Positions 12,138-35,535 of a stretch of DNA of 64,000 nt are shown here, piece after piece. The notes below the pieces were generated by a model. That model was not told the DNA's origin and searched no databases. It saw only the letters and a program-made list of their open reading frames with translations. The stretch's first letter is position 1. Each line of letters starts with the position of its first letter. Location: IMG/VR virus record IMGVR_UViG_2889436542_000005, positions 509 to 64,508 of that record; one strand, 5' to 3'. The DNA is from a virus. Lineage: Duplodnaviria > Caudoviricetes. Made by a program: the position numbers and the translations under genes.

Positions 12138-13367
12138 TTATTCTCCACAATTGTCGTCATTGCAATCACAATCACAGCGACAATCACAATTACAGTTGGC
12201 TTTGTATCTTTCTCTTATTACTTGATGAGAATGCGAGGCTTTAACCAGCGCTTTAAGAATTGTGTTGATGTTGTAGTTCCCGTTTCCTGTCAGCTCTGGA
12301 AGGGTATCAACTGTTAAAAAAGTACGATGCAAAGTCAGATCGCCTGAGCCGCCTGAGTCAGTAAAAACGTCATACGTGTCATCAAAGGTGTCGACCTTGC
12401 ACCTATGAAATTTCGTCGTCGTCTGTCTCGGAGTTGTGTAAACGTTGTAGTCCAAGCCGTCAACGTTGGAAATTTTTGACGTCTGAGAATTCGAGTGCGA
12501 AACCTGGAGGTTGTTAACCTTTCCGTCACCAGCAATTTTCACCAACTCGCTAGCTCTGAAGCCACCAATCATTTCAGCATTCAGATTTTTATTCAGTGTG
12601 CCGTTATTGACCGCCAACTGTCCCGAGCCATTGCCAGCGTGGATACCGTCAACCATATCAGCGTTTAGATTGCTGTTAACCGTTCCGTTGTTAATCGAAA
12701 CTTGATTACTGCCGTTTCCTGCATGTAGCCCATCAACCATGTCGGCATTCAATCTTGTGTTGAGCACGCCATTGTTGATAGCAATCTGACCAGAATCGTT
12801 TCCTGGCTTATATCCACTAACTTTCTCAGCGTTCATACCTTTGATGACTTCGCCTGATGTGGAACCTGAGAAAATTCTGCCCCACGGAGTCCAGTCGCCG
12901 CCGATTTCAGTTCTAACCATGATGATGTCATGATTGAAACTGAACGCTAGCTGAGTTGCCCAACCGTCAGAATTACCATGTCTGAATTGTAGAACTCGCC
13001 ACTGCTTATCGCCTTCAGGGGCATTAAGCATGTTTGTCCCTTCATAGAAGCCAGTAGGCATCTTCTGCCAAAGATTCAAGTCCTTGGCGTCATAGTTTAT
13101 TGCGTTGCCTGCGCCACCTTCAATATGTCGGAACTCGCCATTCAGATCAGCGATCAGCTTCCATCCGTTCTTTAAATCATTGATGTCTATCAGCTGATAA
13201 AGTTTCTTTTCGTCAGTTCTGAAACAAAGCATTCCGTCAAAAACATTTGTAGTCGGGAATGTCGTACCAGAGTTACAAGAAATTGCTGTTTTGTCGTTGT
13301 TTAGAAGCGGCTGAAGAGAGTCTCGAATCTTTTCCGAACTCGGAATCTCTGTATATCGTTGAACCAT
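12138..13367 (-). CDS. Tail-fibre-like protein: anchor domain, pyocin-knob-like domain, 28-aa repeats, HxH, Cys-rich C-terminus
   Basis: N-terminus similar to 29155..29583; TGFY...NAP...WRVL...ATQLAFS...MVRT...WTPW knob signature; NADMVDGLHA repeats; ends NCNCDCRCDCDCNDDNCGE. Confidence 0.8.
   Translation of the reverse strand: MVQRYTEIPSSEKIRDSLQPLLNNDKTAISCNSGTTFPTTNVFDGMLCFRTDEKKLYQLIDINDLKNGWKLIADLNGEFRHIEGGAGNAINYDAKDLNLWQKMPTGFYEGTNMLNAPEGDKQWRVLQFRHGNSDGWATQLAFSFNHDIIMVRTEIGGDWTPWGRIFSGSTSGEVIKGMNAEKVSGYKPGNDSGQIAINNGVLNTRLNADMVDGLHAGNGSNQVSINNGTVNSNLNADMVDGIHAGNGSGQLAVNNGTLNKNLNAEMIGGFRASELVKIAGDGKVNNLQVSHSNSQTSKISNVDGLDYNVYTTPRQTTTKFHRCKVDTFDDTYDVFTDSGGSGDLTLHRTFLTVDTLPELTGNGNYNINTILKALVKASHSHQVIRERYKANCNCDCRCDCDCNDDNCGE
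12561..12833 (-). repeat. Three and a partial tandem 84-bp (28-aa) fibre shaft repeats
   Basis: NAEKVSG.../NADMVDGLHAGNGSNQVSINNGTVNSNL/NADMVDGIHAGNGSGQLAVNNGTLNKNL/NAEMIGG. Confidence 0.9.
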
Positions 13368-23746: not shown

Positions 23747-24454
23747 TTATGAACCTAAGTTAAAGGAATTTGAAACCCAAGAAGTTGTGCCGTAGGAGTT
23801 GTAGAACCGTTGATAAACCCGAATGCATTCGCCATAAGAGTTACCGCCTCTACCATCATTTGAGTAAAGGCCAAAGGCAATGTTCATTGATCTGCTTGCG
23901 CCGCTTGCGTTATTTTTGACAGTTATCCACGGTCCTTCTGTATTGGCGGCTAATCTGTCTGGATTTAAGTCAAGACACGGCGAAGGAGTTACTTGGGCGG
24001 TTGAATCGGCAACAACAGCTAGACGATAGTGATGTGTGTATCCGCCTTCAGTGTGGTAGTGACAAATGCACACTTGCCATGTTGGTGCTGAAGAACCATA
24101 TCCAGAACAACTTCCTGTGACGTAAATGTAGCCTCGCATGTATCTTTGGGCGTGACTGTATTGGTCCTCGCCACTGCCGTGATAACACTGCGTTTTCCCA
24201 GAGTTATAGAGATTGTTCATCGTTGCGTTATAGGCAGAAAAAACAGGCGCAGAGCTGTTTCCTCGCAGGGTCCCGATATCTGTGTTTGCGCTGTTTCTGT
24301 AGCCAACAGAATAGCCCAGTGAACCCGTCGCAAAACGGTTTCCTAAATCCTGAGCGGCTGAGGTTTGAAATCCCAGCGCTCCAGCATTTGAATTGTTTAC
24401 TAAGAACAAAGAGTCGAGGTCGGTTCCTGCTGAGTTCAAAAATCCACAAGTCAT
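23747..24454 (-). CDS. Fibre-associated virion protein
   Basis: G/S/N-rich N-terminus (GFLNSAGTDLDSLF); coupled to the long fibre gene. Confidence 0.55.
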   Translation of the reverse strand: MTCGFLNSAGTDLDSLFLVNNSNAGALGFQTSAAQDLGNRFATGSLGYSVGYRNSANTDIGTLRGNSSAPVFSAYNATMNNLYNSGKTQCYHGSGEDQYSHAQRYMRGYIYVTGSCSGYGSSAPTWQVCICHYHTEGGYTHHYRLAVVADSTAQVTPSPCLDLNPDRLAANTEGPWITVKNNASGASRSMNIAFGLYSNDGRGGNSYGECIRVYQRFYNSYGTTSWVSNSFNLGS

Positions 24455-25914
24455 AGCTTCTTCTCCAATTCTGCAATGCGAGCTTTCAGACGATTAATCT
24501 CATGGATTGCTGTCATCAAAAGAGCTGATTCGTCCAAGCTCAGCATTCCGTTTTCGTCTGTATCGACAAACTGAGGTGTCTGTGTCTTAATGTCTTGAGC
24601 GATATAACCGATGTGTGTTTTCTCTTTTATATCGTTCTTGAACTTGAACGTCTTAAGCGAAGCGTTTGGCAATTCATAATCGACATCTTGTATGTCTTTC
24701 TTCAAGCGTCTATCGGAATTTACTCTGAAAGAGTTTCCGTAAACCCAACCACCAGACGCTCGTATATCTCTATGAACAATAAAATCGCCGTTTTGGTCGA
24801 ACCTATGATTGAAAGTTTGTGTGTTTGTGTTTGAATTGTAATTAGCGTCCGAAATAAAACTGAACGAAAGATTGGAACCGTTTGCAGAGCCTGAAGAGCC
24901 AACCTCCCAACTTCCCGTATTGCACTTCATCGACAATATTGGACAATAATGTTCCCCGTCGGTAATTCGTAAAAGCGCAGTGTCACGCCCTTTACACCAA
25001 GATGTCGAAGTTGACGCTTTTGTAATTTGACCAGCGTTCAGTCTTAATCCGTGACCCATAGTCACAGTGCCGTTCGACAAATTGAAAAACAATGGTCTGA
25101 GATCGTTATAACCACCCAACGCATCGTCGGTGTTAGTCGTCATGAGATAGAAATTTGCGCCATCGTTTCTACAAATGACTGCTTTGTTGTTGTAAATCAA
25201 GCGAAGTTGATTTGTGACAGAACCCCCTACTCGCATTTCGTTGTTGATGGTTGTAATGCCGTTTACAGTAAGGGTTCCTGTAATGGTCTTGCCACCGCTT
25301 AGCGGCAAATAATTGTCGGCCTTTGCTGTCACCCATTGTGTTGTGGCAATTGCACCGCTATTTGAACTTGCGACAGGCGTACAACAAGAAGCAAAAGGGA
25401 CACCAGAAGCATCAAAACCAATACGAAGCAAATTAGCATCCCTTGAATCTGCGACGTTTCTATAACAGCCCATGTGAAAATCCACTGAACCGTCTGCCAT
25501 GGTTTGATGCTCAAGAATGGCCATGCGAGTGTCATAACTGCCAGAATTCAACTCTGTATCTATGGCTCGATTATTACCCGCATTAAAAGTAATGCTTTGA
25601 TATTGATTAGAAGCGGGAGTAACGCCCTTTATTACATTTTTGTTGCTTATATTGATGGCGTTACTAAAAACTTCTATTTTCCCTGTAAAAACCCTTTTCC
25701 CATTGATAACTTGATCGTCATCAACGTTTACTTTTGTATCTAGCAGGTCAGTAATCTTATTTTCTCCCACAATAATGTTGGGAGCTTTAATAAAATTGTC
25801 TTCCCCCTCAATGATGAGAGAACCGCTTAACGACCCACCCTCTGAGCCAACGGCGACTTTATCAAGAACATTTCTTATCGCAGTTTTGATTTGTGCCTTT
25901 GTTTGTTTCGCCAT
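24451..25914 (-). CDS. Long tail fibre with C-terminal intramolecular chaperone (peptidase S74-like)
   Basis: SDRRLKKDI...HIGYIAQDI plus terminal coiled coil; T4-long-fibre-like segments (RNDGANFYLMTT...DLRPLFFNLSNG). Confidence 0.88.
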   Translation of the reverse strand: MAKQTKAQIKTAIRNVLDKVAVGSEGGSLSGSLIIEGEDNFIKAPNIIVGENKITDLLDTKVNVDDDQVINGKRVFTGKIEVFSNAINISNKNVIKGVTPASNQYQSITFNAGNNRAIDTELNSGSYDTRMAILEHQTMADGSVDFHMGCYRNVADSRDANLLRIGFDASGVPFASCCTPVASSNSGAIATTQWVTAKADNYLPLSGGKTITGTLTVNGITTINNEMRVGGSVTNQLRLIYNNKAVICRNDGANFYLMTTNTDDALGGYNDLRPLFFNLSNGTVTMGHGLRLNAGQITKASTSTSWCKGRDTALLRITDGEHYCPILSMKCNTGSWEVGSSGSANGSNLSFSFISDANYNSNTNTQTFNHRFDQNGDFIVHRDIRASGGWVYGNSFRVNSDRRLKKDIQDVDYELPNASLKTFKFKNDIKEKTHIGYIAQDIKTQTPQFVDTDENGMLSLDESALLMTAIHEINRLKARIAELEKKL

Positions 25915-26177: not shown

Positions 26178-26216
26178 GCCCTCGGGTCTTGAACATGCCC
26201 GAGGGCATTTTCTTTT
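26178..26216. terminator. Hairpin terminator downstream of the tip-gene array
   Basis: gccctcggg/cccgagggc stem; the U-rich tail (attttctttt) is on the plus strand. Confidence 0.65.
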
Positions 26217-26748
26217 ATTCGTTGCTCGCCTTGAACCATATACAAGTGCCATTGCCGTTCCAACCGTTGCTATTTGCCCCACGTGTATACATTCTTCCGC
26301 TTGGCGCATCTATGAACATTTGAAATACTTCACTGCCGCTTCCTGTCCAATGAATCAAGTAACCATATTGATTAGGTTGAGCCTTTAAGCAATTTAATTG
26401 GTTATACCAATAGCACCCTCTTGGTTGTTTTCTCCAAAAGTCAGGCGTATCGGTGCTTTCAGTGGTAACATTAACAGATGATATTGCGATAAAGTCATGG
26501 GCTTTAATCCCAATCTCATTGCCTTTGTACTTTGTTAAATTACCGAGATTAGTATCGCCATTTAACCAACTTGTTCCATTAACCGAAAATTCGTTTTTAA
26601 CAGCGGCGTCACCATTCATCCACATCTTGCCATCAACAGAACACCATCCGCTGACATTTAAATCGCCCTGTTTACCCCCCCCCCTCTTATCTAGTTTGTC
26701 AGCGAGGCGCTCTTGAATTAGGTTTATACAGTCTTTTAGTGTTGCCAT
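26215..26748 (-). CDS. Fibre-tip gene F (pyocin-knob-like), G10 tract in frame (ON)
   Basis: GAT AAG AGG GGG GGG GGT AAA; tract at 26675-26684; knob-like RGCYWY...YGYL...VFQMF...MYTR. Confidence 0.8.
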   Translation of the reverse strand: MATLKDCINLIQERLADKLDKRGGGKQGDLNVSGWCSVDGKMWMNGDAAVKNEFSVNGTSWLNGDTNLGNLTKYKGNEIGIKAHDFIAISSVNVTTESTDTPDFWRKQPRGCYWYNQLNCLKAQPNQYGYLIHWTGSGSEVFQMFIDAPSGRMYTRGANSNGWNGNGTCIWFKASNE

Positions 26749-26787: not shown

Positions 26788-27264
26788 TTATTCGATTCGT
26801 TCCCATATCGCATAAACTGCGAATGGAGGAAGATTGTTATGAGCTTGAGAACCACCAGTTGAAGCAGTTTGCAGATCTTTATTTGGGTCGCCAGCACCGC
26901 CGCCACCAGTGGTCGAACCGCCCAATCCTTGCCATGACAAACCATATCCGATTGTGCCAACGTTTAAATCAACCTGCCAACCACCTTCGTTCTCATAGCT
27001 CCAATAAATACCTTTATGGTTATGAGTGGGCATTTCTTGCAATGTCAAGGTATGACTTTCTTCACCGCCAGTCTGACCGATGGGACGATTCTCAGAAGCT
27101 CCGTAAATAAATCTTCCTTCAATTCGCTTCCATTTAGAATACCCCCCCCCGAATAGAATTACATCGGGGTTACGGTCGTCACTAGTGAAGAAAAGCGAGC
27201 CAACGGGATGTACCGCAAGCAAAACTTCTCTGATTAGTTCTTTTAAATCTTTTTGTTCTGTCAT
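26788..27264 (-). CDS. Fibre-tip gene E (T4 gp10-C/gp12-like domain), G9 in frame (ON)
   Basis: HPVGS...W...RF..G...GGEESHTLT..EMPTHNH...HNNLPP...WERI; tract 27142-27150. Confidence 0.88.
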   Translation of the reverse strand: MTEQKDLKELIREVLLAVHPVGSLFFTSDDRNPDVILFGGGYSKWKRIEGRFIYGASENRPIGQTGGEESHTLTLQEMPTHNHKGIYWSYENEGGWQVDLNVGTIGYGLSWQGLGGSTTGGGGAGDPNKDLQTASTGGSQAHNNLPPFAVYAIWERIE

Positions 27265-27735
27265 TTAAGCCGTGCGTTGCCAAATATTTGTAATGTAATA
27301 AGGGGGCATATTGTTATGAGGTTGGGAACTGCCGACCGTTTCGTATTGCTTCTTTGGTTCGGCTTCTTCCCACGCCCATTCGTTTCTTCCGCAACCAAAT
27401 CTAAGAACCCAACACCAATGATCTCCAGCGGGTTCGACTGATGTATCTTGACTTGTCCACTTTAATCTATGATGATGAGCTGGAATTTCACCTTGTGAAA
27501 GTGTGTGAGAATATTCGCCTCCTCTTGCCCCTACCGTCTGACCCATAGCGGGAGCAGTATCTCTACCGAAGAGAAATGCCTCTTCTATTCGTTGCCATAC
27601 CCCCCCCCCGAACACTTCAGCGGGGTTGATGTCGTTATCACTAAAGTAGAAACTACCGACTGGGTGCGCGGCCAATATTGCTTCTTTGACCGATTTTTCG
27701 ACTGCTTTATTGATTACTTCTTCTAAGTTCGTCAT
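27265..27735 (-). CDS. Fibre-tip gene D, G10 in frame (ON)
   Basis: Same domain, HHH motif; tract 27600-27609; start MTNLEE at 27735 by ATGA overlap. Confidence 0.88.
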   Translation of the reverse strand: MTNLEEVINKAVEKSVKEAILAAHPVGSFYFSDNDINPAEVFGGGVWQRIEEAFLFGRDTAPAMGQTVGARGGEYSHTLSQGEIPAHHHRLKWTSQDTSVEPAGDHWCWVLRFGCGRNEWAWEEAEPKKQYETVGSSQPHNNMPPYYITNIWQRTA

Positions 27736-28174
27736 GCTGTTCTGCGCCAAATGAACACTGATCGGAAAGGGGGCATATTGTTGTGCGATTGGCCTCCGCC
27801 GACGTATTCAGTTGCGATATTGCAAGTTGTGTTGCTTGTGTTTACCAACGCTTGCTTCCAAGTATTAGTGGTGTTAGTTACTCCGTTGCTATTAGCCGAG
27901 TAGTAATCATCCTTGTACACTCTGTGAGTATGTCTCGGCATATTCTCTATAGTTAAGGTGACGTTCGATTCCCCAGCCAATGTACCAACTGGTATTGTGT
28001 CTGTTTCACCGTATAGGAACCGACCTCTTACTTTCTCCCATACCCCCCCCCAATTACATCAGCGGGATTCTGAGAACCTTCTGTTAACCAGTAGGAACCA
28101 ACGGGATACAGTTCGAGTTTTGCTTGTTTAACTGCCTTCTCGATTGCTTTGTTTAAAACTTGTTCTAAATTCAT
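27732..28174 (-). pseudogene. Fibre-tip gene C, frameshifted at G9 (OFF; G10 or G7 restores)
   Basis: MNLEQVLNKAIEKAVKQAKLELYPVGSYW...DVIGGG then YGRK*; adding one G gives GGGVWEKVRGRFLYG...MPRHTH...HNNMPP...WRRTA; tract 28043-28051. Confidence 0.88.
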
Positions 28175-28633
28175 TTATGCTGTTCGTTTCCAACAGTAAG
28201 TAACTACATACGGTGGAAGGTTGTTATGAGGTTGATTACCACCACCGCCGTTGACAATGCTTTTTAAGTTGTCAGGAACCATAACGCCGCCATCTGCAAC
28301 GGCGCAGTCAGTGGCTGCCAAAGCATCAAAGTTTGAATCGTTGATCGTGAAGACTGCGCCAGGATTACTAACCATAAAAATCTGTTTGGTTATGTAGTGA
28401 CTGTGTATTGGCAATTCTGATGCCGTTAGAGTGTGGCTTGCTTCACCGCCCGTTTGTCCTTGTTGATAGGTGTCTCCTGCGGTCAGAATGAACCTATCTT
28501 TTACCTGTACCCACGTCCCGCCAAAATTTCACTGGGGGGGGGTAGATACATCAGAAAAGTAGTAACTGCCCACGGGATGGGCTTCTAACTTTGCTTTCTG
28601 AATTGCTTTTTCTAATAGTTGTTCTAAATTCAT
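28175..28633 (-). pseudogene. Fibre-tip gene B, OFF: C9 tract plus in-frame TGA
   Basis: MNLEQLLEKAIQKAKLEAHPVGSYYFSDVSTPPQ*NFGGTWVQVKDRF...PIHSH...HNNLPP...WKRTA; tract 28534-28542, TGA at 28529-28531. Confidence 0.85.
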
Positions 28634-29144
28634 TTACGCTGTTCTTCGCCAAATGTATGCGCTTCTGTAAGGCTGTAGGTTATTGTGAGGTTGAGAACTA
28701 CCTGCTGAAGAAGTTGAGCCCGTCCATGCTCTTGAGGCCTCAAAACCTACTCGATAATCCCAACCAGTATTTGTAGTTCCCTCTCTTCTTGTTTTGCCAC
28801 CACCTGCATAGTAAAAAGCTCCATAAGGTTCTTCTTTTCCGCCACAATCGAATGTCGGGAAGTTGCCTGTGATTTGCATCGTGCCTCTGTCGTGGGTGTG
28901 AGCTGGCATTTCCGAACCACTGAGAGTATGCGTTGCTTCCCCGCCCTCACTTCCTACTGGATAAGTTGAGTTTGCTCCGAGTAAAACTCTACCTTCGAGT
29001 TTAACCCAAGTACTTACCCCCCCCCAGTCCAAGAATTTCAGCAGGGTTTCTGTCTTCTTCAGTAATAAAGTAACTTCCAACAGGATGAGCTTTAAGAACC
29101 GCAACCTCGCCAGCTTTTTGAATCAATTGTTTCAATGTTGCCAT
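28634..29144 (-). pseudogene. Fibre-tip gene A, frameshifted at G9 (OFF; G8 or G11 restores)
   Basis: MATLKQLIQKAGEVAVLKAHPVGSYF...EILGLGGGKYLG*; removing one G gives LGGVSTWVKLEGRVLLG...MPAHTH...HNNLQP...WRRTA; tract 29017-29025. Confidence 0.88.
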
Positions 29145-29154
29145 TTAACTCTTC

Positions 29155-29583
29155 CTAGGTGCCCGCAAGACTTGCGTATGCTTCATCAATCTGAGCTTGA
29201 AGCTCTGCTTTGCTGACATAATTTGCAGAGACACTGTTTTTGAACGCTTCAAACTCTGTCTTAAGTTTTTCAAACTCTGATTGATCGGCTTTTGTTTTTA
29301 ATACCACTTCGTCAACTTCGTTAAAAGCCTCCACAATCGCTTCACCAAGCTCAATAATGTCGTTATCGAGACTTGCTAGGATGTCTACCCAAACTCCTCT
29401 TCTGCGCTGAAAGAGTCTTTGTAGGTCAGATCGAAAGCAAAGCATGCCTTCCTTTAAGTTCTCTTCAGGAAATTCAATTCCTGCCGAACACGTAATGCTT
29501 GCTTCGTCATTGTGCAAAATTAACGGCAACGAATCTTTCAGCGGTGTCGTTAATTGGATTTCTTTATAACCTTGTGCCGCCAT
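29155..29583 (-). CDS. Stand-alone fibre anchor/adaptor (anchor domain + coiled coil)
   Basis: First ~60 aa align by eye with the N-terminus of 12138..13367 (DSL..ND...C..G..FP..N..GMLCFR.D); the rest is helical. Confidence 0.75.
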   Translation of the reverse strand: MAAQGYKEIQLTTPLKDSLPLILHNDEASITCSAGIEFPEENLKEGMLCFRSDLQRLFQRRRGVWVDILASLDNDIIELGEAIVEAFNEVDEVVLKTKADQSEFEKLKTEFEAFKNSVSANYVSKAELQAQIDEAYASLAGT

Positions 29584-30430
29584 CTATCGCTTCCTTTTTC
29601 GGCCTTCCCCGTTTGATATAAGTATTGGCCCACAGAACTTTCGCCCAGACGCCTTCATGACCCTTTGAGTAGTAGTAAGTCGCTGTTCCGTTAGCTGAAC
29701 CCTTTTGAAGATACTTTTCCCACATCTCAATTTTGTAGAACTCGATTTGAGAGAGATCACTTAAAAGTTTTAAATCTGCTTTGTTAGCTAAGATGCAGGG
29801 AGTGCAACCGACACGAGAAAATCCCATTTCATAAAGCGGATTAGCCTTGATTTCGCTCTCTTCTATCTTCTTGAAGACATCTTCTGTAGTCCAAGTAAGA
29901 ATAGGTCTTATATCCCAACACTGAGCGCCCGTTTTCTTGTGTTCTTTTCTTAATTCTCTTTCGGGGAGCTTTGATCTTTTCACCGATTCATCAGCTCTGA
30001 CACCAGTCCAAGATTCAACAGACTCTCCCTTTTCAAGAAACTGATTAACAAAGTCATCAAAAACTTTTACCTTCAGTTCTTTTGTGCAGAACCGATGATT
30101 GAAGTCGGGAAACCTTCCATAAACCAAACAGATATCAAGAAACGGGTTTCCTGTCGGCTTTATGAGTTTTGCAATCTCAGGTCTGTCTTTAAGTCTTTCC
30201 GCTTTACGCTTCAATCTTTCGGTGCAGTCTCGCTTTAACCTTTTGATCTTTGAAAAACCCTTTGATTGAAAAAACTCATCGAGATAATTCAAATATTCGT
30301 AAGTTAAATGATGTTCGTTTCCTGTATCACAAAAAACGAAAATGACGTCTTCAGGTTTGTTTTGTTCCATAGCGAGCAAAGCGACTGCTGTACTGTCTTT
30401 ACCGCCCGAAACGGATATTATTTTTCTCAT
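29564..30430 (-). CDS. PAPS-reductase family protein
   Basis: ISVSGGKDS, DTGNE, RFCTKELK, GVRADES, RVGCTPC; start MRKIISV at 30430. Confidence 0.88.
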   Translation of the reverse strand: MRKIISVSGGKDSTAVALLAMEQNKPEDVIFVFCDTGNEHHLTYEYLNYLDEFFQSKGFSKIKRLKRDCTERLKRKAERLKDRPEIAKLIKPTGNPFLDICLVYGRFPDFNHRFCTKELKVKVFDDFVNQFLEKGESVESWTGVRADESVKRSKLPERELRKEHKKTGAQCWDIRPILTWTTEDVFKKIEESEIKANPLYEMGFSRVGCTPCILANKADLKLLSDLSQIEFYKIEMWEKYLQKGSANGTATYYYSKGHEGVWAKVLWANTYIKRGRPKKEAIDGGTRL

Positions 30431-31458
30431 TAGTAACCTGCCGCTGTCCACGTGAATGTGCCTGTAGTCTTCTGTCCCTCAACGTCGTAGAGCATCACAT
30501 TGAAGCCCGCAGTAGTGACGTTTGTGACTACAGGTCTAATGGCTGTAAGGGCGTTACCAGAACGCATGGTGACTGTGACTTCTGGCGCAATACTGAAAGG
30601 TCTGCTGAACTGAACGTTACCGCCATAGTTTCTGTCTGTGACGGTGCAGGAGCCTCTGTCATAAACGTCATCAACGTCAATAGAAATATCAATTTGCTCT
30701 ACAAGCCCACGGTCTGCCGAAGTTGATTCAATTGCTAGTCGGAACAGTGCTTTCTGATATTCGTAATCGCCCGTAATAAATTCTTTAAACGTTGTATAAC
30801 CGACGTGACGGCCACCATTACGCACGAATTTATCAAGCGTGTCTCTTGACCAAATGCCGCTCTGAATGAAGATGTCAGACAAGACGCCCCGAGCGACCTC
30901 TTTGATAGCATCATAAAAACTGATCGTCTGCGCTTTAAAGACACTGATGTCTTTTTCATTCTTTGTAGAATCAAGCGAAAGAACCTCGCTGTAATCTCTA
31001 ATCCAAGAAATTCTTCTTTCACAAAGATCGTGCAGAATTAAAGCATCACGCACAATCTGTTCAATATCCTTTCTAATTTCGTCTTTCAGTAAGAAAATCT
31101 CTTCGCAATTTTTCCCAATAAGAGCTTCCCTTACTTCAGTCAAGGCAAAACTCTCTTCAATCTCTCGATTGAAGACTAGAGTGTTGCTGAGACTGTCAGA
31201 AGCAAGAATGTTCTCTTCAAAAGTGAGATGCGGTCTTGCGCTCTTTTGGGCAAGAATGCTTAATGGCTCAATCTTTTCAACAGCTAAATCGTTGACGAAG
31301 AAGTCACTGGTTGCAACTTCTTCTTCGACATTGGCAACATAATTTGTTGGGAAGTGCCAAAGCCAATTTCGATCGTCATCCCAAGTGCCCAATCCTTGAT
31401 TCTCATTCACCCATGTTCGCCACTTGGCCTCTGCGGGCGAAATAACAATGGAGGACAT
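30430..31458 (-). CDS. Tail/baseplate structural protein
   Basis: Located after J; H-type-lectin-like C-terminus (FSRPFSIAPEVTVT...VTTAGF...TWTAAGY). Confidence 0.6.
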   Translation of the reverse strand: MSSIVISPAEAKWRTWVNENQGLGTWDDDRNWLWHFPTNYVANVEEEVATSDFFVNDLAVEKIEPLSILAQKSARPHLTFEENILASDSLSNTLVFNREIEESFALTEVREALIGKNCEEIFLLKDEIRKDIEQIVRDALILHDLCERRISWIRDYSEVLSLDSTKNEKDISVFKAQTISFYDAIKEVARGVLSDIFIQSGIWSRDTLDKFVRNGGRHVGYTTFKEFITGDYEYQKALFRLAIESTSADRGLVEQIDISIDVDDVYDRGSCTVTDRNYGGNVQFSRPFSIAPEVTVTMRSGNALTAIRPVVTNVTTAGFNVMLYDVEGQKTTGTFTWTAAGY

Positions 31459-31943: not shown

Positions 31944-31972
31944 ATTTTATATAAATTTCAAAATATTGTCAA
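31944..31972 (-). promoter_or_regulatory. Sigma70-type promoter for the distal tail/fibre operon
   Basis: TTGACA-N17-TAAAAT on the minus strand. Confidence 0.8.
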
Positions 31973-31989: not shown

Positions 31990-34900
31990 TTACGAACTTC
32001 GCCCCACTGATAATTTTTTCATAACACCCTGAGGAGTGGCGGCTACTGTAAAAAAGTTTGTTTGTTTACCTAATATCCCATAACCGAAACCACGTTCTGT
32101 TGGGGTTTGGTGAAAGGCAATGCAGTAATAATCATCAGGCGTCATGTCAACAACAAAAGAAAGATTCTTTCCGTCGCTACATTCAACATTTAGTGTTTTT
32201 TCTTCTGTGTTGTAATAAAACTTGTAGAAACCTTTTCCGTCTTCCGTTGTTAATTGCAAAATTTCCGCCCAAATGTAACGACCTTGATTCTGAGCTTTAA
32301 ACCAAAAACTGAATCTAAACTGCTCTGGAATATCAACCAACTGCCAATTCGCATATGTCAACGGGTTTGTCAAAAAACCCGACGAGTATCTGCCAAGATC
32401 ATAATGTTCCTGTGCGCTAGTCGCTTTATACCCCGAAAGCGTATTTGTGTTGCCCTCAAGCGCAATCCCTTCATAATCAGAAGAACTTAGTCCATAAGCT
32501 AAAGCAATTTGCTTAAACGACTCAACGTCGTTTTGATCGCCTTCTAAACTCCAAGATCGCTCTGCTCCTGGCGCAGTAAAGTCGCATGTTAAATCATCCC
32601 AAGTTGTGGTGTCGTCTCTTGAAGAAGCAACAGATGCAACAGTTGCCGAGAAGGAGTTATGAGCATAGTGCGTTTGGTAAAGATCAACAGGGATGATGTA
32701 TTCACAACGTCTTCTATCATCATCCATGACCAAGTCATCACCTTCGTTGTGCATGTAAACACGATGATTTGGGAATCCAAGACTTCTTTCGTGCATTTCA
32801 AGAACGATGTTCTTGTCTTTGTCATTAACAACACCAATTTCAACCCAGTCAGCAGATTCAGAATAAATTCCAGGCATACAAACAGCTTTAATCCAGAATT
32901 TTCTTCTTGTTTCTGCACCAACAGGAATGGTGCAGTGGTTCACCTTTACTTGAACCAATAGTGTTGAAGCCGACCAGTTAACACCTTCTCGAATTTCATA
33001 GAAAGTAATATCGGGTTCGGGATTGGAGTCCCACTTTAATTCAAGTCGCTCATTTGAACGAACTACTTGAAAGTTAACGGGCGTTATTGGTGCTTCTAAG
33101 ACAAGCTTTGTTGTTGTGACGTGCTTAGAGAGCGAACCATCGGCGTTAATTGCACGAATGTGGTAATAATAGGTCCCTGCTTTATCTTGGTCGTGAATAA
33201 AAGAAGTGCCTGCGAAATTAGTAATAATCGTTTCGCTAGCATCCCAAGAGTCGCCAACTCTAATTTCATAACCCAAAGCGCCCTCAACCGCTGTCCAGTT
33301 CAGTTCAAGATAGGTAGAGCGCTTGATAATGGTAAAGTCTTGAATATCATCTGGCGACGGTAGTCCGTCTTCTGAATCATAGAATGTCTCAAGTGGGTCA
33401 GACAAAGTTCCCAAAACGCCTTTGGCATAGACATAAATATGGTAAAGACCATTCTGAGCATTGGGAATCGTGTAGTACGGAGACTTTGTTTCTACAGAGG
33501 TCCAAGCTTCTCCGTTGCCGTCTTTATCTTCAATGCGATATTCAACAATCCACGACGAGTTATTTTGTGCCGGCGTCCAAGACAGCTCCAAATTACCCGT
33601 TTTAAGGCCAGTGGCGGACTTTGAAATTGAAATTGATATGTTGAGATTCGTCGGTTTACCAACATCGTATGGATCAATTTCAGAAGTGTTGGGAAGCGAA
33701 ATTTCCCAGCCCTTTTCAATAAGATCGTATTTCCCTTTGTTGTAGGTAATACAGTCAATATTGAAAGTGCCTTTTTCTTCACCTTGAGAAATGTTGACCA
33801 CTCGTGCAATTTGAGGAACAAGGTTCTCTTCCTCAATAATCCAAATTGCATAATCAACAGGTAAAGATGGAAGTGGCTCATCCCAGAAGACCTCTGCTCT
33901 TGCTTCGCTATCCGAAACTTTCAACGTTCTTGTGACGAACGAATTGTCGGGCATTCTGATAGAAATCTTTGGATTAGCCTCTGCTTTAAACGCCGTTTCA
34001 GCATCTAATGTTGCGCTCGTTAACGTACATGACTTCAAGCGCCCACCAAGTCTTCTGCCCGCATGGTATGGGTCGTGAATCTTAATGATGTCGCCAGGAA
34101 GAACAAGGGCAGAGTCCAAACCGACAGTAAATGAAATCATGTCTGATTCGTACTGCTCGGTGTAAAGAACCCATCTGCCTGCTCGAATCGCCTGGCCTCT
34201 GGATGTACATCCAAAAAGCGTCAGTTCTGATTCACGCACGCCCCATTTTTCTATAAGGTCTCTGTCCTCAACGTACTCAACAACCTGCTTATAGTTTTGG
34301 TCAGGGTCGTTCCATGTAATCAAAGCAACAGAATGTCGCTCAGCCCTTGAAGAACCTGTATATCTAAACTCCCCGTTTACGACATTAGCTTGAGTAAAAA
34401 GGACTGACGGTTCGGTTGGTTTGTCACAGGTAAAATTGGCTTGACCCATTGCCCAATAGGTCATACCTCTGAAAACTGCCGTAATTGAATTGATTAATTC
34501 ATAGGCTTCAGAACGTTCTGTGACCTGTGTATTAATGGAAAAGCGCTTTTCTTTTTTTCCAAAACCATCATCTACAAGCTCGTCGCAATACCGTCCAATC
34601 TCATAGAGTTTGGCTTTATTCACTTGTTCTGGTTTAATAAACTGACCCAATCCCCATCTAGGGTTAGTAAGCAAACCATACAAAATCCACGCAGGATTGT
34701 CTGAGACTTCAAGTTTGAAAGTGCCATCCCAAACACCTGTATATGTATTGCTGGCCTTGTCATAGTTGCTTGGGACTTGAAGATATAAGCCATCAACGAT
34801 GTATGAGCGAGCTGGAATATTGCTTAAATTTTCAGCAGTGGCAGAAATACCAATAATTGCTGAGTTTGGATAGTTCAGCTTTGTTTCTGAAATAAGAAAC

Positions 34901-35535
34901 ATCGTTGTAAAAGAAAGTGCGGCAACATAATCATCATCCGCTTCAGGAGACAGTTTGGTTAATCTGATTAGCCACCGCTCTGGCGCCTTCCCCTTTGAAT
35001 CTTTTTGCGGAAGCTCAAATGTATAGCTTCTTTGGTATTGAGAAGATGTTTTGCCTTCAACTTTTTTAGTGCCATAATCGACAAAATCATCGTTGTTAAT
35101 GGCAATCTCAAATTTAAATTCAATAGAGGTTTTCTTTAGGCCGTTATCAACTCGATAAAGATAGGGAATTGAAATTCCACAACGAACTTTATCAATATTA
35201 GTTTCTGTAATTGAACGTACAACAGGATAATCGTGTTTGACTTCAGCTCCGACCTCGACAGGAATAACCGTGCTTTCAAAGCCCTGCATCGTGTCCTGAA
35301 AAGGAGTACCTCTGGCTTCTTTAACGTAGACATTATCGTAGTTAAAGGAGCCAGACTGATTCTGAAGCGGAACATCATCAAAATAAATTGATTTTGCTCC
35401 ATCAACAAGACCTCCAATTTGACCTTCGGAAATTAAATCTAAAACTTGTAACGAGGCAATAGAAAATAAAGTATTTTCGTCATTAGACTGCTTATTCCCC
35501 TTACTGCCTCCTGCTCCCGCAACGTAATTTGTCAT
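31990..35535 (-). CDS. Tail tip/central fibre protein J-like
   Basis: LDLISEGQIGGL, NPAWIL, YCDELVDDG, RWVLYTE, FN3-like domains. Confidence 0.93.
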   Translation of the reverse strand: MTNYVAGAGGSKGNKQSNDENTLFSIASLQVLDLISEGQIGGLVDGAKSIYFDDVPLQNQSGSFNYDNVYVKEARGTPFQDTMQGFESTVIPVEVGAEVKHDYPVVRSITETNIDKVRCGISIPYLYRVDNGLKKTSIEFKFEIAINNDDFVDYGTKKVEGKTSSQYQRSYTFELPQKDSKGKAPERWLIRLTKLSPEADDDYVAALSFTTMFLISETKLNYPNSAIIGISATAENLSNIPARSYIVDGLYLQVPSNYDKASNTYTGVWDGTFKLEVSDNPAWILYGLLTNPRWGLGQFIKPEQVNKAKLYEIGRYCDELVDDGFGKKEKRFSINTQVTERSEAYELINSITAVFRGMTYWAMGQANFTCDKPTEPSVLFTQANVVNGEFRYTGSSRAERHSVALITWNDPDQNYKQVVEYVEDRDLIEKWGVRESELTLFGCTSRGQAIRAGRWVLYTEQYESDMISFTVGLDSALVLPGDIIKIHDPYHAGRRLGGRLKSCTLTSATLDAETAFKAEANPKISIRMPDNSFVTRTLKVSDSEARAEVFWDEPLPSLPVDYAIWIIEEENLVPQIARVVNISQGEEKGTFNIDCITYNKGKYDLIEKGWEISLPNTSEIDPYDVGKPTNLNISISISKSATGLKTGNLELSWTPAQNNSSWIVEYRIEDKDGNGEAWTSVETKSPYYTIPNAQNGLYHIYVYAKGVLGTLSDPLETFYDSEDGLPSPDDIQDFTIIKRSTYLELNWTAVEGALGYEIRVGDSWDASETIITNFAGTSFIHDQDKAGTYYYHIRAINADGSLSKHVTTTKLVLEAPITPVNFQVVRSNERLELKWDSNPEPDITFYEIREGVNWSASTLLVQVKVNHCTIPVGAETRRKFWIKAVCMPGIYSESADWVEIGVVNDKDKNIVLEMHERSLGFPNHRVYMHNEGDDLVMDDDRRRCEYIIPVDLYQTHYAHNSFSATVASVASSRDDTTTWDDLTCDFTAPGAERSWSLEGDQNDVESFKQIALAYGLSSSDYEGIALEGNTNTLSGYKATSAQEHYDLGRYSSGFLTNPLTYANWQLVDIPEQFRFSFWFKAQNQGRYIWAEILQLTTEDGKGFYKFYYNTEEKTLNVECSDGKNLSFVVDMTPDDYYCIAFHQTPTERGFGYGILGKQTNFFTVAATPQGVMKKLSVGRSS

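Follow-up and report, generated by a model that had tools for sequence, protein, structure and literature searches.

How is a phage fibre put together when its anchor and its heads are encoded by separate genes? The question is raised by a stand-alone 142-aa gene in a phage tail-tip module, which is followed by a series of small genes for anchor-less tip proteins. A preliminary description of the locus had proposed that interchangeable tips dock non-covalently on the 142-aa protein as a common adaptor, and that specificity is thereby swapped at the level of protein assembly. The window analysed here (64,000 nucleotides) covers a single-contig genome of 64,508 bp except for 508 bases, and the ORF calls place all of its long ORFs on the minus strand. 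Its tail-tip module is lambda-like and consists, in order, of K, I, a 1181-aa J-like protein, a 152-aa gene and a 342-aa gene. These are followed by a PAPS-reductase-family gene, the 142-aa gene, six small tandem genes (A-F) and a 487-aa fibre. The features upstream of the tips are:

31990..35535 (-), gpJ-like central tail fibre at the start of the tail-tip module (ORF, 1181 aa)
30430..31458 (-), 342-aa protein; by synteny, its C-terminal ~110 aa (30430..30762) are the probable dock of the N-domain
29564..30430 (-), PAPS-reductase-family gene (Pfam PF01507, E 4e-27) between dock and adaptor, not part of the fibre
29155..29583 (-), stand-alone fibre stub and putative adaptor, 142 aa (ATG-to-TAG ORF)

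Orthologues of the gpJ-like protein carry FNIII-A_GpJ and Phage-tail_3. A protein of Parasutterella muris, encoded on a 157-kb contig and annotated as hypothetical, is 98% identical to the 142-aa protein; because of this annotated copy, the element is evidently a temperate phage of that mouse-gut bacterium. A search of the phage GenBank collection returned no match to the adaptor or to the 12-kb region, either as protein or as DNA. Between J and the 152-aa gene lies a sigma-70-like site (window 31944..31972 (-); TTGACA, 17-nt spacer, TAAAAT; 11 of 12 matches) that may be the promoter of the fibre operon; the whole scan found fewer sites than shuffled sequence, and the site is a lead only.

The stub and its one relative within the genome comprise the following parts:

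29374..29583 (-), N-terminal anchor domain, residues 1-70, common to the 409-aa fibre and modelled by AlphaFold2
29161..29358 (-), three-segment coiled-coil stalk, residues 76-141, predicted from AlphaFold2 helices and heptad spacing
29167..29193 (-), C-terminal motif QIDEAYASL, a candidate tip-docking segment, recognized by sequence conservation
12138..13367 (-), second N-domain fibre, 409 aa, 16 kb away from the stub, recognized by its N-domain match

The 142-aa gene had been described as a fibre N-terminal domain plus a coiled coil and nothing more, and this description holds. Residues 4-59 align with residues 3-58 of the 409-aa protein at 45% identity (E 8e-17), and the remainder is helical and headless. 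AlphaFold2 models residues 1-70 confidently from a 106-sequence alignment (pLDDT ~95, against 44 with an alignment of 11 sequences only) as one helix and three short strands. Past residue 70 only helices are predicted (76-97, 101-120 and 125-141), and hydrophobic residues at 3-4 (heptad) spacing can be read directly from their sequence. Residues 76-141 would thus form a short coiled-coil stalk. More than 25 loci encode stand-alone homologues, of 142-240 aa; those of similar length span 142-177 aa, a distant relative reaches 240 aa, and the difference lies in the mid-region, which varies by inserted xTxxYLxK repeats. The last helix bears a motif, QID(E/D)AY(A/E)(S/I)L, that is kept in all split forms examined (the window, L003, L017 and the distant L031), while the fused fibre of locus L015 does not have it.

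The N-domain itself belongs to a large family. Searched for exhaustively with a profile, it turns up in 352 protein clusters; the proteins range from ~90 to over 1600 aa, and the domain invariably occupies residues 2-60. Of 106 carriers, 16 have Peptidase_S74 at their end, 8 carry Collar, 2 Gp10_C and 4 C1q, and others bear further fibre heads. Fusions to Collar or Gp10_C tips include P0051, P0101 and P0110, the first of which, with 284 aa, is about as long as stub and tip summed. Elsewhere the domain is fused to S74 fibres related to the 487-aa protein of the window, and P0066 and P0052 are further proteins in which it stands alone. Judged by this distribution, the N-domain is a generic fibre anchor. 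It has no match to any model in Pfam, PHROG or NCBIfam, and an NCBIfam scan of eight proteins of the fibre module gave no match for any of them. A profile sequence search of the PDB with the adaptor likewise gave no match. Foldseek of the adaptor model against the PDB returned nothing at E <= 0.001, the best hits being collagen XV/XVIII trimerisation domains (E 0.6-1), and in a wide VIA-align search the helical half alone matched, to generic helical bundles (Z <= 6.1).

Three loci outside this lineage present other arrangements of the same family. At L245:4176-7863, a dock-domain protein comes first, then an N-domain protein of 146 aa that stands alone, next a variable, Mtd-like protein of 281 aa without an anchor, and finally a template repeat and a reverse transcriptase; the locus may encode a second kind of split fibre, with a diversity-generating retroelement. 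At L032:5894-11515, in a phage of SU10-capsid type, the dock-domain protein precedes a stand-alone 168-aa N-domain and coil protein, with an 81-aa protein and LRR_5 proteins downstream; the 168-aa and 81-aa proteins share an end motif (G-R/K-I/V-W-I-E). At L178:3824-7933, in Megasphaera massiliensis NP3, the N-domain fibre has a collar-type tip fused to it; after it come inverted partial tip C-termini, another tip that stands alone and, on the opposite strand, a tyrosine recombinase. This last arrangement looks shufflon-like, an inversion switch in the same fibre family.

What the N-domain plugs into can be approached through gene order. A homologue of the C-terminal domain of the 342-aa protein is encoded directly upstream of the N-domain gene at 57 of 64 diverse IMG/VR loci, and the same domain occupies this upstream position in the SU10-like phage L032, in L086 and in the Megasphaera prophage L178. 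Because this adjacency extends across unrelated phage types, the C-terminal domain of the 342-aa protein is the probable socket of the N-domain, and the stub would be plugged into it on the lambda-like tail tip. The 342-aa protein also has a weak H_lectin match in Pfam. No dock gene lies near the orthologues of the 409-aa fibre (L209-L215). The PAPS-reductase-family gene overlaps both the dock gene and the adaptor gene and looks like a mobile insertion in the fibre operon; it is present at this position in L001, L004-L007 and L020-L030, and absent from L003, L008, L009, L015, L017 and L031.

Downstream of the stub, six tip cassettes and a long fibre follow:

28634..29144 (-), tip A, Gp10_C type, OFF; G9 run at 29017..29025
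28175..28633 (-), tip B, OFF; C9 run at 28534..28542 and a second 1-nt deletion at 28523..28526
27732..28174 (-), tip C, OFF; G9 run at 28043..28051
27265..27735 (-), tip D, ON, Gp10_C domain (PF21939, E 3.6e-19); G10 run at 27600..27609
26788..27264 (-), tip E, ON, Gp10_C domain (PF21939, E 1.2e-15); G9 run at 27142..27150
26215..26748 (-), tip F, ON, a different body of no known family; G10 run at 26675..26684
24451..25914 (-), 487-aa long fibre without N-domain (Gp34_trimer and Peptidase_S74)

The absence of the fibre N-terminal domain from genes A-F and from the long fibre, asserted in the preliminary description, is borne out by an N-domain HMM run over the whole 64.5-kb genome, which finds the domain in exactly two ORFs, the 142-aa stub and the 409-aa fibre. 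The helical N-termini quoted there for the anchor-less proteins (MATLKQLIQKA, MNLEQLLEKAIQKA, MATLKDCINLIQERL and MAKQTKAQIKTAIRNVL) all occur as written in the ORF translations. Tips D and E score 70.5 and 59.1 bits against the Gp10_C model PF21939, both above its curated cut-off of 27 bits. A single-sequence search with tip E returned contigs already known only. The body type of the 487-aa fibre occurs fused to the N-domain in other phages.

Each tip would be a separate protein that begins with an amphipathic helix and continues into a head, of Gp10_C type in A-E and of another type in F. The head helix spans 17-23 residues before the sequence HPVGS; it is conserved between orthologues and only ~30-50% identical between paralogues. 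Tip D has longer homologues (P0164-P0171) in which the Gp10_C head comes after an extended helical shaft that passes without a break into the AHPVGS motif. The N-terminal helix of the tips therefore appears to correspond to the end of the coiled-coil neck, that is, to the last stretch of what is a continuous shaft in the fused homologues. Tips A-E (window 27265..29144) are joined by TAAATG or ATGA, and ribosome-binding sites of their own are not evident; a premature stop in an OFF cassette could lower the translation of the next.

The tip genes are also the site of a genetic switch. Each carries one run of 9-10 G or C, ~20-45 codons after its start, and apart from these six no G/C homopolymer in the window exceeds 5 nt. 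In tips A, B and C the reading frame breaks precisely at the run, which is 9 nt long in all three; in D, E and F it is open. Run lengths vary from 6 to 11 nt across nine IMG/VR relatives, eleven near-identical metagenomic or genomic copies and more distant relatives (6-10 nt in L020-L030), and orthologous cassettes differ in state from phage to phage, being either ON or OFF. Tip A, for instance, is ON with G11 in L003, and L017 and L018, which have identical adaptors, differ at tip 1 by G8 (ON) versus G9 (OFF). In total, 21 of 77 cassettes are ON, near the one-third expected under free slippage. These genome comparisons show slipped-strand ON/OFF changes of the G/C run in each tip gene, by which the availability of tips would be set. 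The claim that specificity is swapped at protein assembly was thus incomplete: slipped-strand switching sets which tips exist in the first place.

Tip B has a second frame defect at window 28523..28526, where its T run counts 4 nt against 5 nt in the near-identical L025; because a stop lies between the C and T runs, a single C-run slip would not switch this tip on. An extra G8-G9 run that is not in the window occurs in four relatives (L003:13209-13217, L008:13098-13106, L009:13730-13738 and L017:13329-13336). It is intergenic, ~20-30 nt upstream of the start of a 237-aa gene (orthologue of window 23747..24454), and could be a signal for phase-variable expression. DNA inversion was considered as the switch in the window and rejected, the cassettes being all co-directional and the module containing no recombinase.

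Whether the available tips are held by the stub is best addressed by a natural swap between related phages. M, L, K, J and a 153-aa protein are 98-99% identical between L015 and L017/L018, and the DNA of these phages aligns colinearly, at 90-92% identity, as far as codon ~114 of the fibre or adaptor gene, where homology ends. Past this codon, L015 continues into a covalent head of 180 residues, for a fibre of 301 aa in total, and has neither Gp10_C tips nor any G/C run of at least 6 nt. In L017/L018, this codon is followed instead by the C-terminal segment of the adaptor and by an array of tips with runs. The C-terminal third of the adaptor and the tips therefore seem to be exchanged as a single module while the rest of the tail tip stays the same, as far as one natural comparison can tell in which the 345-aa protein is 92% identical between the two. 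Attachment of the tips directly to J or to the 153-aa protein becomes less likely, since L015 and L017 share both at 98-99% identity. Tip-on-stub docking is favoured at roughly even chances or better, with tip trimers presumably binding non-covalently to the C-terminal segment of the stalk (QIDEAYASL).

The main alternative is that the tips dock elsewhere, on the 342-aa or 152-aa protein, J or the long fibre, and that the 142-aa protein is a headless whisker or spacer, or a holder of one partner such as the 487-aa fibre. Stand-alone Gp10_C tips are indeed common in phages that have no such N-domain, which accompanies them at just 2 of 160 loci; such tips can therefore dock on other partners. 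The short tail fibre gp16 of phage SU10 docks directly on a loop of a tail protein (PMC9509320). The head helices of the tips vary between paralogues, and the tip-bearing and tipless phages differ by 8% in the protein equivalent to the probable dock. These observations are countered by the swap, in which the adaptor C-terminal third changes along with the tips and J, the 153-aa protein, L, K and M do not, by the adaptor stop and first tip ATG, which are adjacent or overlapping at all split loci, and by the C-terminal motif, conserved in split forms only. Docking elsewhere is judged unlikely, at something under one chance in three.

Two further readings are very improbable. That read-through of the stop codon or a frameshift links adaptor and first tip covalently, leaving the fibre not truly split, could be read from L001-L009, where the two lie in one frame with only a stop codon between them, but is opposed by a frame relation that is not conserved (TAG and 10 nt before the tip ATG in the window, an ATGA overlap in L017, a +1 offset in L031) and by the ATG that every tip has of its own, B-E being impossible to join in this way. 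That the 142-aa gene is a functionless, decaying remnant of a formerly complete fibre would agree with its lack of a receptor-binding head, which its relative P0016 (301 aa) bears on the same stalk, and is contradicted by a reading frame unbroken at every locus examined, though adjacent tips are often frame-broken, by conservation of the C-terminal motif as far as L031 and by the selection analysis, in which the N-domain has a dN/dS of 0.02-0.14 and the first coil segments one of ~0.2, calculated between lineages at saturated dS. The stub gene is real, intact and strongly constrained.

The architecture that accounts best for these observations consists of a dock, a trimeric fibre stub acting as adaptor and tips that are held non-covalently and can be switched. 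As a whole, this model is given a little more than an even chance. Slipped-strand changes in the 9-10-nt G/C runs would decide upstream which tips are available for docking, and a lysate would then contain mixed virions with different tip sets on one common stalk. The proposal of interchangeable tips on a common adaptor is supported in part, by comparison: the stub is conserved and stand-alone, is always followed by anchor-less tips, has fused equivalents elsewhere and, in the natural swap, has its C-terminal third replaced along with the tips by a covalent head. To this are to be added the 342-aa protein as the probable dock and a choice of tip that is genetic.

A broader reading can be offered more tentatively, at somewhat less than even chances. 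Together, the N-domain and the C-terminal domain of the 342-aa protein may form a plug and socket, widespread and so far unannotated, from which fibres hang in hundreds of lineages, with lambda-like, SU10-like, DGR-bearing and shufflon-bearing phages among them; in the Parasutterella lineage, a cut within the coiled-coil neck of the fibre would have left a stalk that accepts up to seven stochastically expressed tips. If so, a single genome would give rise to combinatorial virion populations. In either case, the N-domain and its probable dock can now be named as two unannotated modules found repeatedly across hundreds of phage lineages, a step that would improve the annotation of host-recognition genes in gut viromes. 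If the model of dock, stub and tip is true, it provides a concrete architecture by which a temperate gut phage displays phase-variable receptor-binding heads.

Several known systems resemble parts of this arrangement. Mtd of Bordetella phage BPP-1 is a trimeric receptor-binding protein that sits on the ends of fibres. Among the predicted viral structures of BFVD, the best fold matches of the adaptor model are named 'Mtd N-terminal domain-containing' (E 2e-6 and 4.7e-3); this likeness is to predicted models, none of them a solved structure, and a Pfam scan of the adaptor gave no Mtd_N match. In the baseplate of phage TP901-1, the structural protein BppU (ORF48) holds BppL receptor-binding trimers by their N-terminal helical stems. 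Here too, a siphovirus structural protein would carry small, separately encoded receptor-binding trimers. No sequence or fold relation to TP901-1 is detectable (3uh8 at rank 47, E 6.8), and BppU, unlike the stub, has a dedicated C-terminal holder domain, one type of receptor-binding protein and no phase variation.

The nearest solved relative of tip D is the SU10 short tail fibre gp16 (PDB 7z47, E 0.011). Both begin with an N-terminal helical region, which in gp16 forms a proximal domain ahead of a T4 gp12-like tip. In SU10, gp16 is a single chain of 267 aa whose N-terminal helices dock on a loop of the nozzle protein, with no fibre stub (PMC9509320), whereas the window encodes a separate stub. 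The switch has its closest parallel in Campylobacter phages, for which hypermutable polyG tracts in receptor-binding protein genes (Sorensen et al. 2021, Cell Rep 35:109214; PMC12823448) are reported to produce phenotypically mixed phage populations (PMC12823448). As in those genes, the in-gene G runs described here vary in length and switch genes ON and OFF. The present phage differs in being a temperate, lambda-like phage of Parasutterella, known here from genomes alone, and in multiplying the switch over a tandem array of small tips that apparently share one stalk.

The most instructive comparison is with gp37, the small trimeric adapter of coliphages K1-5/K1E and Salmonella phage SP6, which bears the tailspikes gp46 and gp47 (Leiman 2007, summarised in PMC6872550). 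According to that summary, the combination of an anchor-only adapter with anchor-less receptor-binding proteins that dock through short N-terminal sequences is established for gp37 (PMC6872550), and the design has been extended to the branched receptor-binding proteins of Klebsiella phages (PMC6872550). Like gp37, the 142-aa protein is small and keeps the tail-anchor domain of a fibre without a receptor-binding domain, having an N-domain and helices only. In both systems the receptor-binding proteins are anchor-less and separately encoded, those of gp37 attaching through short N-terminal sequences and those described here by a presumed docking, and in both the same type of receptor-binding domain occurs fused to an anchor in related phages. 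The differences are equally clear. The stub anchor is unrelated, lacking a T7 gp17 or K1F-like N-terminus and forming its own family of 352 clusters, and the stub has no T4 gp10-like D2/D3 branching domain, its putative socket being a coiled coil. The tail is that of a lambda-like siphovirus, and up to seven alternative tips, each phase-variable, take the place of the two fixed receptor-binding proteins of gp37. The stub system is not a member of the gp37 family and, by analogy, would work like it, with a presumed coiled-coil socket. The adapter principle is thus already known, and what appears to be new is its combination with a coiled-coil socket, a siphovirus tail and a phase-variable tip repertoire. 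If this reading is true, the adapter design of T7-like podophages evolved separately in a siphovirus, where a coiled coil serves as the socket.
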